Assembly (NCBI GenBank): GCA_963833095.1
Contig: CAWHWQ010000005.1
Span: forward strand, 192,001 to 256,000
Reading direction: 5' to 3'
Length of the DNA: 64,000 nt
From: Vulcanimicrobiota bacterium
GTDB taxonomy: Bacteria; Vulcanimicrobiota; Vulcanimicrobiia; Vulcanimicrobiales; Vulcanimicrobiaceae
In this document: in pieces, positions 28,270 to 38,431 of the stretch
Layout: every line of letters begins with the position of its first letter
How positions within the stretch are numbered: position 1 is the stretch's first letter
Notes under the pieces: model-generated
What the model saw: the letters and a program-made list of their open reading frames with translations, nothing else
Databases searched by the model: none
Told to the model about the DNA's origin: nothing
Position numbers and translations under genes: made by a program

Positions 28270-29438
28270 TCGCCGGCGCCTGCGGGCGCAAGCAATTCGA
28301 ATGCCCCTTGGGCCGCGATGCGCTCGCCCGGCTTGAGGCCTGCGCCGACCAGGGCAGTCGTTCCGTTCTCGTGCCGGACGCTCACGATCGCCTGGGTGAA
28401 TTTGAACGAGCCGTCCTTTTGACGCTGTTGCGAAAACACGACGTCGTCGCCGGTCTGCGGATCGGCGACGATCGCAATCTGCGGAACCAGCAGCCCGGCG
28501 ACGCGCGCAACCGTGACGCGCGCGCGAACCGCCGCTCCAGCCGAAGCATTCGGCGGGAGACCGCCGACGATGACGGTCGCCGTCTGCGTCGTAGGATCGA
28601 GGGCGCGCACGACGGCGGTGACGCGCCCGCGAGCGCGGACCGTCAATCCGGTGATTGCGAGATCGACGGCATCGCCGATTTGAATTTGGTCTGCGTCACT
28701 CGAGGGAACGCGCAGCGTCGCCTCGTTTTGGATGTTCGGGCCAACAATCACGACGGCCGTTCCCGGATCGACCGGTTCGCCCGGGCGATGTAGTATTGCT
28801 GTGACGATGCCGTCTGAGGGGCTGCGCAGCGTTGCGCGATTGAGATCGCTTTGCGCGAGTGCCGCTTTGGCAGCAGCGCTGGCCGCCTGCGCTTGCGCAG
28901 CCGTTCGTAGTGCGCCCGCGCTTTGCGCGTCCGCCGAATCGGTTGCGAGCGTCGCGCGCGCATCCTGCACATCTTTGAGCGCCACGACACCGGCGCGATA
29001 GAGCCGTTCTTCGCGCGCGGCGGCGCTTCGATCTGCCTCAACGCGTTGCTGGTACCGATTGACCGCAGCGGCCGCCGCCGAAGCGGTCGCGGCACGCGCA
29101 TCATCCTCCGCGCCTTGTGCCTCCAGCGCCAGCGGCTCGAGATCGAGCGCTGCCAAGGCTTCGCCAGCGCTCACGCGATCGCCGACGCGCACATAGACGC
29201 GACGCAACACCCCCGAATTCGCAAAGGCGAGTTGCGATGTCCCGGCGGTGGGCGACCCGACGAATCCACCCTCATCGAGGACGACCGTAAACTCACCCTC
29301 ACGCACCGTGGCGAGCGCTACCGCGGGCGTCATCTCGCGTTGCGCTGCGTCCGAACCGCCGCGGTGCATGACGAGCCAGGCGGCGATGCCGAGCGCGAGA
29401 ACGGTGCCACCTGTGACGTACCAGTATTGCCTACGCAT
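28266..29438 (-). CDS. RND efflux periplasmic adaptor (membrane fusion protein)
   Basis: N-terminal TM, VRVGDRV..GEALA, coiled coil, LRSPSDG, GLKPGERI. Confidence 0.9.
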   Translation of the reverse strand: MRRQYWYVTGGTVLALGIAAWLVMHRGGSDAAQREMTPAVALATVREGEFTVVLDEGGFVGSPTAGTSQLAFANSGVLRRVYVRVGDRVSAGEALAALDLEPLALEAQGAEDDARAATASAAAAAVNRYQQRVEADRSAAAREERLYRAGVVALKDVQDARATLATDSADAQSAGALRTAAQAQAASAAAKAALAQSDLNRATLRSPSDGIVTAILHRPGEPVDPGTAVVIVGPNIQNEATLRVPSSDADQIQIGDAVDLAITGLTVRARGRVTAVVRALDPTTQTATVIVGGLPPNASAGAAVRARVTVARVAGLLVPQIAIVADPQTGDDVVFSQQRQKDGSFKFTQAIVSVRHENGTTALVGAGLKPGERIAAQGAFELLAPAGAGD

Positions 29439-30651
29439 GTTCGTCTCCCATCAACATCTGCAGCGTCGCTTGCGCGCGCACGACGTCGTAATATGCCGAA
29501 AGCTCCGCGACGAGTGCCGCGACGTATGTCGTTCGCGCCGATTCGACGTCGAGACTGGAGCTCGCGCCGCTTCGATAGCCGATCTGCGTCGCATCGTATT
29601 CGGCTTTGGCTTCGCGCAGGGCGCGCTCTGCGGCGGCGAGAGCTACGCCCTGAGCAGTCTGCGTCCGCACCGCGGCACCAACCGAAACGGTGATGCTACG
29701 GCGAACTTTTTCCAGCTGCGCCTTGGCCTGCGCAAGGCGAGCTTCTTCCGCGACGACGCGGTCATGGGCGGCGCCTCCCAGCGGAACCGTCATCGTCACA
29801 TTGGCGCTCGGACCGGAAACCTTGATCCCGGTATCGACGCCGGTCGTGTATCCACCGGCCAGCGTCAGCGCCGGAATACCGGCGCGCTTCGCAACGTCGA
29901 CTGCGTGCGTCTCGGCTTCGACGTCGGCCTGAGCCGACGCGACTTCCGGGCGCGACGCGAGCGCCTGGCGAACGGCGGCATTCACGTCGTACGGAACCAG
30001 CGGCGGTATCGGCTCGTCGCGTGACGTCGCGACCAGCGTGACGGTATCGACTGCCGTTTCGAGCGCCAGAGCATCGGTCGCGTTCTGCGCATCGGCCGCA
30101 GCGCGAGCAAGGTCCGCCTGCGCGTTAGCGAGTGCAACCGCGGCGCGCACCTCGTCGAGCCGCGGTGCATCACCGGCGCTAAAGCGCAGATGGGCCGCGC
30201 GAAGCTGCGCTTGCGCATCGCGCACCGCCGCCGTACGAGCGTCCGCCGCCGCGAGCGCGTCAAGGGCGCCATAGTAATACCCGATGACGGCCACGCGCTC
30301 GTTGCGACGCGCGTCGTCGAAGTCGAACTGCGCGACGCGCAGCGATGCGTCGGCCTGCGCGATTGCCGGCGATGCCGCGAAGAGATCGCCGAGCGCGATC
30401 GTTGCTCCAAACGTCGTGAGCCGCTGCGCGACGACTTGGCCCAGATCGCCGCCTTGCGGCGCTTCGGCGTAGGCGGCAGTAAGCGAGGGCGCGTACTGCG
30501 CGCGAGCGGCATCGAACAGCGCCTGCGCTTCGTCGACCTTGGCACGCGCCATCGCAACGTCCGGCGAATGGGCGATTGCGGCGCGCTGCGCATCGTCGAG
30601 CGTGAGCCGGCCAAACGACGCGACGACCACCGCCAAGAGCAGATGGATCAT
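29431..30651 (-). CDS. TolC family outer membrane factor
   Basis: Start MIHLLLAVV at 30651; LTLDDA, RFSAGDAPRLD, GYRSGASSSLD repeats. Confidence 0.88.
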   Translation of the reverse strand: MIHLLLAVVVASFGRLTLDDAQRAAIAHSPDVAMARAKVDEAQALFDAARAQYAPSLTAAYAEAPQGGDLGQVVAQRLTTFGATIALGDLFAASPAIAQADASLRVAQFDFDDARRNERVAVIGYYYGALDALAAADARTAAVRDAQAQLRAAHLRFSAGDAPRLDEVRAAVALANAQADLARAAADAQNATDALALETAVDTVTLVATSRDEPIPPLVPYDVNAAVRQALASRPEVASAQADVEAETHAVDVAKRAGIPALTLAGGYTTGVDTGIKVSGPSANVTMTVPLGGAAHDRVVAEEARLAQAKAQLEKVRRSITVSVGAAVRTQTAQGVALAAAERALREAKAEYDATQIGYRSGASSSLDVESARTTYVAALVAELSAYYDVVRAQATLQMLMGDEHA

Positions 30652-33600
30652 TCGACCGCAGCCTTTCCCGCGAACCCGGCGTAGAGCACGGGAATTACCA
30701 ACAAGGTAAACGCGGTTGCCGTCGAGAGACCGCCGATCACGGCGATCGCGAGCGGCTTCTCCATCGCCGCGCCCGACCCGATTCCGAGCGCGAGCGGCAA
30801 GAGTCCGCCGATCGCCGCAAAGGTCGTCATCACGATCGGACGCAAACGCGTGCGTCCAGCGGCGACGAGCGCCTCCTCGACGCTGTCGCCGGCGGCGCGG
30901 CGCCGGTTTGCCACGTCGATCAACAAAATGCCGTTCTTGACAACGATACCCACGAGCAGCAACAGCCCCATGAAGGAGGAGACGTTGAAGGGCGTTGACG
31001 TTATGAAGAGCCCGAGCGCGACGCCGATCAGGGCGAGCGGAATCGCGGTGAGAATCACGAGCGGCAGCCGGTACGAACGGAAGGCCGCGAGCATTACCGC
31101 GTACACAAGCGCGATGGCGATGGCGACGACGCCGGCGAACTGGCGGAACGAGTCTTGCTGCTCGCGATATTGGCCGCCGATCGTCGCGCGATATCCAGCC
31201 GGCAGCTGCTGCGCGGAGATCGCGCCGCGCATGCCGGAAACGACAGAGGAAAGATTCGCGCCGGCAATGCTCGCGGTGAGAACGATGACGCGCGCGCCAT
31301 TTTCTTCGTACATCGTGGTTGCAAGTGCAGCTGGAGCAATGCGCGCGATGGCGTCGAGACCAATCGGTCCGCTGGGGGACGCCACCCGTGGATCGGGAGC
31401 GCTTGGCGCGTCGACGAGCACGCGCACCGGTACGAGATTGTAGGGCCCGGGTAATTCGGCCGCAACGTCGCCTTGAGCTTGCGCCGCAAGCGAATCGGCG
31501 AGCGAGGATTGCGTCCATCCAAGTTGCGCGAGAAGCCGGCGATCCGGTGAAACGCGTATTGCCGGATCGGTGTAGACGACGCCGGAGAACACGTCAGCCA
31601 GACCTTTCACGTCGGAGAGCCGAACAGCGAGCGCGCTGGCTTGCGCGACGAGCGTGGCTTGATCCGGACCTTCGAGCGTGACTTCGAGCGGCGCCGGCGC
31701 GCCCGAAACGTCGTCGATCATATCCTCGAGAATCTGGTGAAAATCGAAGTGAGCGGCGGGAACTGCCTGCGCCAACTCGTCACGGAGCCGGTCGCTTACG
31801 ACCGGGTACGGTGCGCGCTCGGTCTCGGGTCGCAGGCGCACACGCAAAATGCCGGCATTTCGGGGCGTCGGCGAGTAACCGTTAGTGTCGAGGCCGGTCC
31901 AGCGTCCGACGCCCGCGACGGCCGGATCCGCAGCGACGACCTGCTCCATCGTGATGCGCCGCTGCGTCCGACGCCTCCAAACTCGTTCCGACCGGAAGAA
32001 CGTAATCGATCTCGAATTGTCCCTCGTCGAGAGTCGGAAGAAAGTCGCTCGGCAAGCGCGCAAGCAGCGCGACGGTCACGAGCAACACGCCAAGCGAGGC
32101 GGCATAAATAACGGGCCGGTGCTCGAGCGACCAACGAAGGATCGGCTCGTAGCGTTCGAGCACGCGATGAACAAAGGTCGCACTGTCGTCCATCTTCTCC
32201 GATCGTATGAAGAGCTTGGCGAGAACCGGTGTAAAGAACAGCGCAAGGGCCAGCGAGACGATCAGCGACGTTGCAAGCGTCAGCGCCAGCGAACGGAAGA
32301 AGAATCCGCTAACACCGGTAAGTAGAGCCAGCGGAACGAAGACGACGACCGTCGTCGCCGTCGATGCGATCATCGCCCCGCCAATCTGCGACATCGAGAG
32401 CGTCACTACCTCACGCAGCGGCAGTTCCGGCTGATCGCGCCGGTTGCGCGCGATATTTTCGATCACAACGATCGCGTCGTCGATGATCAGCCCCACCGCG
32501 ATGGCCAGGCCGCCGACGCTCATCAGGTTGAGCGTCTCGCCGGCGCGACCGATAGCGAAGATTGCAATCGCGATCGCGAGCGGAATCACCGCAGCGGCGA
32601 CCAGCGTCATCCGCAGACTGCGCAAGAATAGATAGATAACAGCGACAGCGAGGAGCGCGCCGATCAGGATCGCGTCGCGCAATGACGCTTGGGAGTCTTT
32701 CACCAGCGTCGTCTGGTCCCAGAAACGCGTGAAGACCGCGCCCATGGGGAGGGCCGCGTTGATGGCCTTCGCGCGCGCGGCTACATCCTGCGCCATACGT
32801 ACGGCATCGGATCCTGGAAGCGCATAGAAACTGACGATCACGCCGTTGTGGGCGTCGAAACTCACTTGATCGGTCACGGGCGCCACGCCCAACTTCACAT
32901 CACCGACCGCGCCGATCGGCACAGAACCGTGTTTGGTGAAGATCTCGACGCGCGTAAGGTCGGCAGCGGTGCGGATGCCGGCGTCAACCACAACGACACT
33001 GCGCGTGTAGTGACGCACTTGCAGCCCAACCGCAGTGACGGCCGTCGCTTCGCCGAGCGCCTGTTCGACATCGCCCGCGGTGAGACCGTACTGCGCGAGC
33101 GCGTTGGGATCGAGGTCGACGTGGTATTCGCGCGGCGGTCCACCCGCTACGCTCACTCGCGCCAGCCCCGGCGTTCCGTAGAATCGCGGCACCATCGATT
33201 GCTGCGCGAGTTCGTGCAGCAGCGTTTGCGACATAACGTTCGACGTCAGCGCGTAAGAGACGATCGGTTCGCTATTGGGATTGATGATATTGGATTGCAC
33301 GCTGACGTTTTGGGGCAAAGCGGCGCGAGCCTGCGCTATCGCCTGGTCGACATAGGTGAGGTCGCCCTGTACGGTGGTCTTCGGATCGAACTCGACGATG
33401 ATCTCGGCGTTGCCTTGGCTCGATGTCGCGAACACGCGCGTAACGGACGGCAATCCCGAAAGCGCGCGCTCGAGCGGCAATGTGACCGCGACGCGAACTT
33501 GATCCGGCGGCAGGTTACCCGCGTCAGCAACCACGTCGATCCGCGAAAACGACATCGTCGGGAAAATACTGGCCGGGATCTGTGTGTACGCCGCGACTCC

Positions 33601-33681
33601 GAAAATAGCCAGCGCGGCAACGAGAAAAACGATGACTTTTTCAAACCGGAGTCCGAACGCCGCAAGGTTCACACGGCGCAT
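30648..33681 (-). CDS. RND efflux permease (CusA/CzcA-like), one apparent frameshift near 31960
   Basis: NLMSVGGLAIAVGLIIDDAIVVIEN; GIVVKNGILL; RLRPIVMTT; two ORFs join in one RND. Confidence 0.92.
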
Positions 33682-35779: not shown

Positions 35780-38431
35780 GTGATTCGCTCCGACGAGCGC
35801 GTTGATGGCGCGCTGTTCGACCGCTTCAACGCGAGTGTCGCGACCGCGGTCGATGCCGTACGCCAGGCGTCGGAGGCTATTGCCGCCACCGCGCAAGAGC
35901 AAACGACGCTGATGGTCGCGCTCTCCGATACGGCCGGTACCCTTGCCTCGGCCTCCCGCGAGACGGCCGAGCGGTTACAAAGCGCTCAATCCTCGGCGCG
36001 CGCGGCAGCTTCGGACCTCGGAAACTCCTTTGAAGTCGTCGAGAATTTGTTGACGTCGGTGCAGCAGCTGGCTGAACTTTCCGCCGACACCGCGACTGCG
36101 ATGGACGACTTCGGCCGGCTCATGAGTGAGATCGGCCGGATGACCGAATTCGTCGAAGACGTCAGCGATGAAACGCAGCTGCTCGCACTCAACGCGGCAA
36201 TCGAAGCCGCGCGCGCCGGACAACACGGGTTGGGCTTCGCCGTCGTCGCCGGTGAAGTCGGCCGTCTCGCAAAGACAACGAACGAATCCACCACGGCGAT
36301 CAAGACGCTCGTCGTCGAGATTCAGCGCGAAGCTGAGGCCACGATTCAAGCGGTGCGCGCTAACGCCGAGCGTTCGGCCGCGTCGACGCCGCTCGCGGAC
36401 GTTGCGCGCAGTTCGCTTGCCGAGATCGCCGAACTCGCCGCTGATCTTTCGGTAACCATTGATCGCGCCGTTATCAGCGGCCGCGATCACAGCCATGCCG
36501 CCGAGCAAATGCGCAAGTCGACTGATGGCCTTGCCAATGTTGCTGCCGCGCAGGGCCGCGAAGCGCTCGAATCCGCGTTCGCGACGCAGCGCCTCGCCTA
36601 TTACGGCGCTGAGATCGAGTACATCTCGCGTTCGCGCACGGCATCCAAGAGCGATCACACGACGATCAAGATTGCGACGCTGCTGCCGCCAGGCTATCCG
36701 CCGTCGCGGGCATGGGAGTTTGTCGCGCAACGCGCCTTGGAACTCTCAGAAGGACGCTTGCGCTTCGAGTTGGAGATTCCGTTCACCGGCGGCAATGAGA
36801 TGGAAGCACTGTTGCGCGTACGTTCCGGCGAGATCGACATGGTAAGCGTCACGACCTACGTCGCCGGCGCGCTGGTGCCGCTGGCGCAATTGCTCGACCT
36901 GCCCTTTGTTTTTCCGGATCGCGAGTCGGCGCACCGTCTGCTCGACGGCCCGCTCGGCCAGACCATCCTCGAGTCGTTCGAGTCGTTCGGCTTACATGGG
37001 CTCGCGTTTTTCGAAAACGGGATGCGGCATTTCACCAACAGCCTGCACCCGATTCGCCGGCCGTCGGATATGCGCAAGATGCGCGTGCGCATCCAGGACT
37101 CGGTCGTCTATCTCGCGCTCATGCACGCGCTTGGAGCATCCCCGAAGGTCATTCCCTTCGGCGATGTTTATCGTTCGCTCCAGAACCACGAAGTCGACGC
37201 GCAGGAAAATCCTCTCCCCAACACGCTGGGCGCGCGGCTCCATGAAGTGCAGCGTTATCTCTCGCTCACCGCTCACACCTATAACACGCAGATCGTGCTT
37301 GGGAATATCGAGCGCTGGCGTTCGCTTCCGGCGCAAGACCGCGAGATCATCCAGCAAGCCTTCAAAGAAGCAACCGACTTTCATCGCCGCGTCTCCGGCG
37401 ATGACGACCAGCACGCGCTCGCCGAACTGCGCAAACACCTCGAAGTGCATGAACTGCAGCCTGATGAACGCGAGGATTTCGTGAAGACCTCGCGCTTTGT
37501 GTGGGAGCGCATGGAACCGCTCTTTCCGACCGACGTGTTCCGCTTGCTCCTCAACCGCAACTTGGAAACCTGGCGCCCGCGCGTCAATCTCGGCGCCCAC
37601 GCGTCGACCCATGGATTTACGCTCAACGACATCGTCGAATCGATCGACCGATCGGTCAGTTCGGTGCGCGCGACCGGCGATACGATCGGCACGCAGTCGC
37701 GCTCGCAGATTGCCAGCCTCAATGCGCTTTCGCAGCAATCTATGGAGCTGAGCGGATCGAACGAGCAGCTTGCCAAGGCTTTTTTGGGGCTGGGCGACCG
37801 TTTCGAGCAGGTCGCCCCCCAGGTTCGCATCATGCGCGATACCGTCGGCGAGTTGATCGACACGATCAACGTCCTTTCGTCGATGGCGATACAAAGCCGC
37901 AATGCGCTCGATCAATTCGCCAAGTCAATGCATCAGATTTTCAACATCATCAACTTGGTGCGCTCGGTGTCGGATAAGACCAATCTACTCGCGCTCAACG
38001 CCGCGATCGAGGCGGCACGCGCGGGCGACCACGGCAAGGGCTTTAACGTCGTCGCGGGAGAGGTGCGCGGCCTGGCCGATAAGACCAAAGCGTCGACGGT
38101 GAATATTCGCAAAGTCTTGAGCGATCTCGAAGCGCGGGGCAAATCCGCGGGCGTTGCAATCGAGAACGGCGTGGCGAAAGCCGAGCATAGCGCGCGTCAG
38201 GCGCGCATGGCGCAAGAGGCATTCGGACGTATCGAGCAGTTCGCCAGCTCTGCCCAGTTTACGCTCGAGCAAGCCCAGGATGCCGCGAACGATGAAGCGC
38301 GGCGCGCGTACGCGATGTACGGTGATTACTCGCAGATGGCTGCGCTGGTTGAATCGCACGCGCAGGACAGCCGCGCTGCACTCAGCTCAACGGTCGAACT
38401 CGAACGCCAACGCCGCGCCCTGTTCCAATAG
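35780..38431 (+). CDS. Soluble chemoreceptor: MCP signalling domain - TRAP DctP solute-binding domain - second MCP signalling domain
   Basis: Two hairpin tips ([24 protein letters not shown]) around DLPFVF, ENGMR, MRVR, PFGDVY, DAQENP; no TM or signal peptide visible. Confidence 0.9.

Follow-up and report, generated by a model that had tools for sequence, protein, structure and literature searches.

The window analysed here is a 64,000-nucleotide stretch of a Vulcanimicrobiota bacterium (assembly GCA_963833095.1, contig CAWHWQ010000005.1, positions 192,001 to 256,000 of the forward strand), and positions given without a contig name refer to it. At 35780-38431, on the plus strand, lies an uninterrupted 883-codon reading frame with a GTG start. 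To judge from its sequence, the product is a soluble chemoreceptor in which two signalling hairpins of the methyl-accepting chemotaxis protein (MCP) type enclose a complete DctP domain, the solute-binding module of TRAP (tripartite ATP-independent periplasmic) transporters. A first-pass annotation, made from the letters of the DNA, had proposed the same single clean open reading frame (ORF), and its approximate positions for the two tips and the DctP domain fit the features as we delimit them:

35780..38431, plus strand: whole gene, MCP hairpin-DctP-MCP hairpin, 883 amino acids and stop codon (from the ORF, Pfam and NCBIfam)
35816..36634, plus strand: hairpin 1 (H1), residues 13-285, with the N-arm to about residue 145, the C-arm from 147 and about 19 heptads per arm (from the AlphaFold2 helices and an alignment to Tsr)
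36179..36271, plus strand: tip 1, residues 134-164, a U-turn presumed to bind CheA/CheW (nearly all residues invariant)
36635..36661, plus strand: connector 1, residues 286-294, variable (predicted local distance difference test score, pLDDT, below 50 at 289-292)
36662..37552, plus strand: DctP (TRAP solute-binding) domain, residues 295-591 (from Pfam, NCBIfam and a fold match)
37553..37615, plus strand: connector 2, residues 592-612, variable (pLDDT below 50 at 602-612)
37616..38428, plus strand: hairpin 2 (H2), residues 613-883, paralogous to H1 and sharing its heptad register at an offset of 602 (from the AlphaFold2 helices and similarity to H1)
37985..38077, plus strand: tip 2, residues 736-766 (invariant tip motif)

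Pfam assigns residues 300-578 to DctP (PF03480; E 3.4e-70, 237 bits), as had been expected of the middle domain, and two stretches to MCPsignal (PF00015; E 6.1e-53), while the NCBIfam model for dctP, TIGR00787, scores 217.9 bits (cut-off 175). An AlphaFold2 model computed with 48 homologues as input (mean pLDDT 80.9, predicted template-modelling score 0.57) has helices at residues 5-145 and 147-285 in H1, an alpha/beta domain at 295-591, and helices at 615-747 and 753-882 in H2, with low confidence restricted to residues 1-7, 289-292 and 602-612. The flanking segments are identified as MCP signalling hairpins by the two PF00015 stretches, the near-invariant tips and the two predicted helical hairpins. 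DctP proteins are normally exported to the periplasm, where they hand their substrate to DctQM. In this protein, the domain begins at residue 295 of a chain that lacks a hydrophobic segment. A 19-residue hydropathy scan found no membrane segment in the 883 residues, and the highest Kyte-Doolittle mean, 1.62, comes from a stretch inside the DctP core that can be aligned to 4P47, a soluble protein. The stop-to-stop frame, at only 918 amino acids, is too short for an overlooked signal peptide or membrane anchor at the N-terminus, and the lack of both features claimed at first pass is borne out. The protein contains zero cysteines.

The receptor design is genuine and is confined to one family of Eremiobacterota. 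Its taxonomic range, which the first-pass annotation had proposed to check, proved narrow: among 301 genomes of the phylum, the gene is intact in 36 and split in one (G115), and all 37 belong to the source organism's own family. (This tally takes in one genome flagged as unpublished, G276, which adds just a DctP-only row.) The receptor is present in all ten of the other genomes of the source genus, and three single-contig genomes (G136, G202 and G144) carry the intact gene. Full-length homologues form 83 clusters (838-903 amino acids, at least 95% coverage, 53-98% identity), all with both Pfam families; a search of 1.84 billion representatives added one more full-length representative (P0068) and fragments, and the corresponding ESM Atlas cluster has 249 members, with Vulcanimicrobiota as the commonest phylum. 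Two homologues labelled 'Dormibacteraeota' (P0091) and 'Verrucomicrobiae' (P0033) were not counted as other phyla, because the hairpin segment of P0091 is identical to that of a locus in G168, a genome of the same order as the source.

The gene is not a chimeric join, a possibility that had been named at first pass. Besides the 37 genomes that carry the architecture, exact contigs span both junctions of the DctP domain with no mismatch; they come from four DNA runs that belong to a single study and may represent the source samples. Junction 1 is crossed in three runs (X1, 36304-37099; X2, 36299-37099; X3, 36455-36842) and junction 2 in all four (X1 and X3, 37075-37883; X4, 37102-38146; X2, by overlap of 37075-37605 and 37577-37883). 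No RNA data set was listed as containing the gene. In G115 (locus L026, G115:C7:398300-401400), a 4-nucleotide length difference in connector 2 splits the gene into a hairpin-DctP ORF and an H2 ORF, which may reflect an assembly error or a real split.

Conservation is distributed unevenly along the chain. Mean column identity is 0.78 in H1, 0.75 in DctP and 0.69 in H2, reaches 0.94 and 0.89 around the two tips (residues 125-175 and 727-777), and is 0.46 and 0.38 in connectors 1 and 2. Among 47 homologues, we counted no insertion or deletion in H1, a one-residue event limited to a single sequence in H2 in addition to C-terminal extensions, one single-residue deletion in DctP that is common to 18 sequences, and 9 and 40 events in connectors 1 and 2, so that nearly all length change falls in the connectors, the N- and C-terminal ends of the protein apart. 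Both hairpins have about 19 heptads per arm, judged by arm length; H1 aligns without gaps to residues 265-505 of Escherichia coli Tsr, whereas H2 needs 7 extra residues. The far ends of the four helices keep aromatic or hydrophobic residues (F13, F16, F267, Y274, Y275, F613, L874, L881 and F882), and residues 35-45 of H1 look, by eye only, like a methylation helix.

The closest solved relatives of the middle domain by sequence are the TRAP binding proteins 4P47 (E 5.7e-50), 4XEQ and 4OVS, in that order, and its predicted fold matches that of apo IseP (8t9t; Z 33.7, root-mean-square deviation (rmsd) 2.3, 304 aligned residues). In the account of family ligand contacts given in PMC11668362, expressed here in 4P47 numbering, R173 pairs with the carboxylate in a salt bridge, R152 and N213 contribute supporting bonds, an aromatic residue at 196 closes the site, and an acidic residue at 76 is usually bonded to a hydroxyl of the ligand. 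The alignment to 4P47 is gapless across the pocket, residue n of 4P47 being residue n+264 here, and D76, R152, R173, Y196 and N213 correspond to E340, R416, R437, F460 and N477, all five invariant in 48 of 48 aligned homologues. The carboxylate-binding pattern pointed out at first pass is conserved to the same extent: ENGMR (E412, N413, G414 and R416), the arginine R437 of MRVR, F460 of PFGDVY and QENP (Q475-P478) are invariant in these 48 sequences. Because the pocket contacts map to invariant R437, R416, N477, F460 and E340, the ligand is expected to be a carboxylate and is probably a hydroxy-acid, with a hydroxyl next to the carboxylate as the likeliest arrangement.

H1 and H2 share 30% identity (E 2e-25) and a common register, as 66 conserved hydrophobic positions coincide at the offset of 602 and at most 49 at any other shift. 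A tree built from 72 hairpin segments (LG+G4, quick search, with a long-branch warning from the program) groups the H1 rows (15), the H2 rows (15) and seven of eight rows from single-hairpin MCP-DctP proteins in one clade, with a Shimodaira-Hasegawa-like approximate likelihood ratio (SH-aLRT) support of 98; the H1 and H2 clades are supported at 100 each, and their subtrees are congruent. Since H1, H2 and the single-hairpin paralogue fall in one clade, H2 arose by duplication. On sequence grounds, the simplest path would be that an ancestral hairpin-DctP receptor gained a duplicated hairpin behind its sensor. The single-hairpin form, in which DctP follows the hairpin (572-684 amino acids, typically about 600), occurs in 11 of the 301 genomes, and both forms are found together in three.

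Relatives from the 1.84-billion-representative search extend this picture. Of 22 that were checked against Pfam, 14 have MCPsignal followed by DctP and four combine MarR with DctP, the rest being two proteins with DctP and Peripla_BP_6, one with a double DctP, and one with DctM and a double DctP. One or two N-terminal hydrophobic segments occur in 19 of 30 proteins of the MCP-DctP type, and three of the Pfam-checked ones bear a HAMP domain, so that the DctP domain at their C-terminus must be cytoplasmic as well. The membrane-anchored receptors (P0141-P0158 and similar) measure about 700 amino acids; a pair of closely spaced hydrophobic segments at the N-terminus is followed by an MCP hairpin and by DctP at the C-terminus, and some also have HAMP. 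Soluble single-hairpin forms reach outside Eremiobacterota, and one MCP-DctP cluster (P0134) derives from Sulfuricaulis sp. The MarR-DctP fusions (P0161, P0206, P0234 and P0170; 463-493 amino acids), one of which is assigned to Candidatus Baltobacteraceae and goes under the name of a TRAP binding protein at NCBI, look like cytoplasmic regulators with DctP as their ligand sensor, and the DctP-only rows of the 301-genome tally (frames of 461-541 amino acids) may be the same. Apart from P0145, a methyl-accepting chemotaxis protein by name, those of these relatives that a source names carry TRAP binding-protein labels. It appears that the DctP domain is also used as a cytoplasmic sensor in single-hairpin MCPs, in membrane-anchored MCPs and in MarR regulators.

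As stated in the first-pass annotation, neither dctQM nor che genes adjoin the receptor gene. Its neighbours are an OmpR-type response regulator and a HAMP histidine kinase, upstream and divergent, and a racemase and an amidase downstream. The receptor gene is the only DctP match in its own genome (81% complete), where no DctM was found and DctQ was not searched. DctM is also absent from four of five near-closed relatives of one or two contigs each (G136, G202, G144 and G079), and the fifth (G130) has one DctM, far from the receptor gene. Around 8 full-length and 6 single-hairpin loci nothing is conserved: PAP2, LIV-type ABC, and PAS-LuxR or histidine kinase genes lie near full-length loci, and LrgAB and carboxyltransferase genes near two of six single-hairpin loci each. 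We therefore did not accept the neighbourhood as a clue to the ligand. Further away in the window, an AcrB-family ORF of 599 amino acids (31882-33681, minus strand) covers only positions 12-578 of a 1021-position profile and may be truncated or frame-broken; it is followed by an ORF with an outer-membrane efflux domain (29431-31518).

The chemotaxis machinery of this genome is simple. One CheA (664 amino acids) and one CheW (168 amino acids) are encoded on contig C1 beside cheC, flhA and flhB, CheR is present, and no CheD was found in the genome. CheB methylesterase matches at G000:C1:186917-187401 (G000 being the source genome) fall in two frames, one match contains a TAG, and the gene may be interrupted. 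CheW is present in 34 of the 37 receptor-holding genomes, and the other three are assemblies of 290-550 contigs each (the CheW tallies take in seven genomes flagged as unpublished, none among the 37). There are two CheW-domain matches in the source genome, in CheW and CheA, and exactly two in most genomes of the family, and no triple-CheW protein was found in the source genome. Triple-CheW single frames, a hallmark of the F9 class, were seen at G007:C201:23500-24930, G026:C5:30824-32269 and G014:C2:34741-36174, in other families only.

The same genome encodes two other MCPs, a 560-residue protein with three N-terminal hydrophobic segments and longer arms, and a 213-residue fragment. The 560-residue MCP (L003:2651-7038, G000:C2) has no periplasmic domain and lies between ORFs of 445 and 434 amino acids with only dCache_3/sCache_3, a locus in which the sensor may be split from the transducer. 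The 213-residue MCPsignal ORF (L002:3389-4030, minus strand, G000:C3) has proline- and arginine-rich ends that are apparently out of frame, and may be a frame-broken piece of an MCP of about 714 amino acids found in closed relatives. The sole cultured member of the phylum is described in PMC9758169 as lacking flagella.

We consider it fairly likely that the protein is a cytoplasmic chemoreceptor that signals into a single flagellum-linked CheA/CheW pathway, the only one of the organism, with a DctP domain that senses an intracellular carboxylic acid and is held between paralogous hairpins. With such a receptor, the cell would probably be able to direct its movement according to an organic acid inside it. 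The DctP domain, no longer serving a transporter, would bind a small carboxylic acid inside the cell, and H1 and H2 would zip into one four-helix bundle equivalent to an ordinary receptor dimer, with the one DctP domain spanning the far end of this bundle and held there by two flexible connectors. In IseP, according to PMC11668362, domain I is formed by residues 1-153 and 243-281 and domain II by residues 154-242 and 282-336, the N-terminus lying in the former and the C-terminus in the latter. Because the DctP termini sit on different lobes, closure would shift one tether point with respect to the other. Closure upon ligand binding might then alter the geometry of the tether or the docking of DctP on the conserved aromatic helix ends, and either change would shift kinase control. 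Given connectors of variable length and sequence, we favour such a change over a rigid piston. The proposal made at first pass, that a transporter binding protein was recruited as an intracellular sensor, is consistent with the preserved pocket and with the failure to find a TRAP DctM, but its corollary, that closure rigidly moves the hairpins, is weakened by the connectors being the least conserved parts of the protein.

The arrangement of the hairpins is about evenly balanced, with the two hairpins of one chain zipped in parallel and in register being slightly the more likely. The AlphaFold2 model itself is a parallel, in-register, single-chain four-helix bundle. Two solved single-chain four-helix bundles align to it in full, 1yo7_B over 120 of 120 residues (rmsd 2.0, Z 15.8, range 114-782) and 6z0c_A over 199 of 199 (rmsd 3.1, Z 16.5, range 89-813), and as these alignments span both tips, the four helices near the tips at 146 and 750 lie side by side. 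A control was provided by an 888-residue tandem two-hairpin protein of the same genus that has no DctP domain (AlphaFold2 pLDDT 86.5). Its model folds back likewise (1yo7_B, 120 of 120 residues, rmsd 2.1, range 161-558; 6z0c_A, Z 17.9, range 143-580), so that fold-back may be the AlphaFold2 default for any lone two-hairpin chain, and we dropped the predicted geometry as a discriminator. This control protein is a second soluble two-hairpin receptor (L024:5654-8320, minus strand, in G136; also L025 in G202), with tandem MCPsignal domains whose tips are near residues 190 and 525. Its C-terminal domain (665-888) is conserved, has no Pfam match and resembles Cache/PAS-like sensors in its predicted fold (4ywz, Z 11.7; 5ere, 3lid and 2zbb, Z 10.5-11.1). 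The protein has 37 homologue clusters, those with organism labels all from Eremiobacterota, and was not found in G000.

A different arrangement, which we regard as rather unlikely though worth serious attention, would be a homodimeric bridge of the DosM type, in which H1:H1' and H2:H2' bundles point in opposite directions and insert their tips into the two CheA/CheW baseplates of a cytoplasmic sandwich array, with two DctP domains in the mid-plane sensing the same internal acid. One chain does hold two complete, conserved tips, and long flexible connectors would permit bridging, while the fold-back of the model does not discriminate. Moreover, the ancestral single-hairpin form must homodimerise, so that H1:H1' pairing is the older state, and DosM, the only two-signalling-domain receptor studied, is described as an extended rod over two baseplates, seen by cryo-tomography (PMC7534058). 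However, we found neither a triple-CheW protein nor a second Che cluster, the source genome and most of the family having two CheW-domain matches; the F9-type triple-CheW frames belong to other families of the phylum; the membrane receptor of this genome uses the same CheA/CheW; and in the model, for its part, the two tips lie next to each other. With a single Che system and no triple-CheW protein, one baseplate is a better fit than two. We keep the single-chain bundle as slightly the likelier for this reason, and because the hairpin lengths are equal and fixed, because the tips have diverged at different positions (L151 and G161 in H1 versus K and R in H2) and because all four helix ends are conserved. 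It is improbable that the DctP domain is a structural scaffold only, a spacer or protein-docking module that has lost small-molecule sensing. Such a role has a precedent in DosM, 98% of whose homologues are without sensory domains and are regarded as scaffolds in PMC9321776, but here the five ligand-contacting residues are invariant down to 53% identity, DctP is as conserved as the hairpins (0.75), and MarR regulators and further MCPs carry the same domain in fusions in which it would be expected to act as a ligand sensor. The chance that the gene encodes an ordinary TRAP solute-binding subunit, or is an assembly chimera of dctP with mcp genes, is very slight. Sources do name homologues 'DctP family TRAP transporter solute-binding subunit', yet this explanation is refuted by the absence of a signal peptide and the failure to find DctM, by the MCP hairpins that flank DctP on both sides in one frame, by conservation in 37 genomes, several of them single-contig, and by the exact contigs that bridge both junctions.

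Several observations weigh against a single-chain receptor that senses an acid and signals through the flagellar pathway. The extended rod of DosM and the fold-back of the control, described above, are two of these. The side-chain volumes in the cores of H1 and H2 are alike (r 0.79), and large-against-small H1:H2 pairs, sought as a sign of heterotypic packing, were not found. A methylation-type motif has one loose match, at residue 816, and CheB is interrupted in an assembly that is itself incomplete. The variability of the connectors argues against rigid mechanical transmission. Finally, the neighbourhoods offer no clue to the ligand, and the nearest solved relatives are only about 30% identical and bind varied acids, which does not single out one compound.

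Known systems share parts of this design. DosM (Vibrio cholerae VC1403), from the cytoplasmic arrays of the F9 class, is likewise soluble and has two MCP hairpins per chain. Its hairpins are in tandem, whereas a DctP domain lies between the hairpins here; the comparison with DosM is one of likeness only. In place of a DctP sensor, nearly all DosM homologues have no sensor (98%; PMC9321776), and DosM is accompanied by a triple-CheW protein and an F9 gene cluster (PMC7534058), whereas the present genome has a single-domain CheW and CheA in a flagellar cluster. Unlike those of DosM, H1 and H2 are duplicates from a local MCP-DctP lineage. Terms for DctP and TRAP had no match in 12 of the 20 supplementary files of PMC9321776 (files 13-20 were outside the search).

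The simpler MCP-DctP paralogues, from which the double form is derived, are arranged like Helicobacter pylori TlpD, the sensor following the C-arm of a soluble hairpin. The sensor of TlpD is a zinc-binding CZB domain. By description, TlpD has one hairpin and, unlike the present receptor, no domain between two hairpins. TRAP solute-binding proteins (4P47, 4XEQ, 4OVS and IseP, 8T9T) have the same fold and the same carboxylate-binding residues, but they are exported and serve DctQM, whereas the present domain is internal to a cytoplasmic protein from a genome in which DctM was not found. The type-II binding-protein fold also serves as an MCP ligand domain in ESM Atlas clusters that combine MCPsignal with NMT1, Phosphonate-bd or SBP_bac_3; these proteins belong to other solute-binding families, come from Bacillota and Spirochaetota, measure 511-645 amino acids, and have only MCPsignal and families of the solute-binding type among their listed Pfam domains. 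Our literature searches found no published description of a DctP domain inside a chemoreceptor, nor of the architecture, whose earlier characterisation had been named at first pass as a ground for refutation.

Chemoreceptor dimers are symmetric by sequence, which makes the effect of one ligand or of one methylated subunit on the kinase hard to dissect. We tentatively propose, while leaning slightly towards doubt, that the protein is a natural single-chain receptor in which one ligand acts on a built-in asymmetric 'dimer', and that it is the most derived member of an unrecognised class of intracellular TRAP DctP sensors, whose other members would be the single-hairpin MCP-DctP, the HAMP-bearing, membrane-anchored MCP-DctP and the MarR-DctP proteins. 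If it is single-chain, its 'subunits' would be diverged segments of one chain, each half of which could be mutated alone, and its one sensor and lack of cysteines would ease cross-link mapping. More broadly, the TRAP binding-protein fold appears to have been recruited as an intracellular sensor, in receptors as well as in MarR regulators. Annotation pipelines label the MCP-DctP and MarR-DctP members of this class as transporter subunits, and where no DctM is found, such labels inflate the transport capacity inferred for Eremiobacterota. The receptor points to taxis that is driven by a metabolite inside the cell in an abundant and almost uncultured soil phylum.

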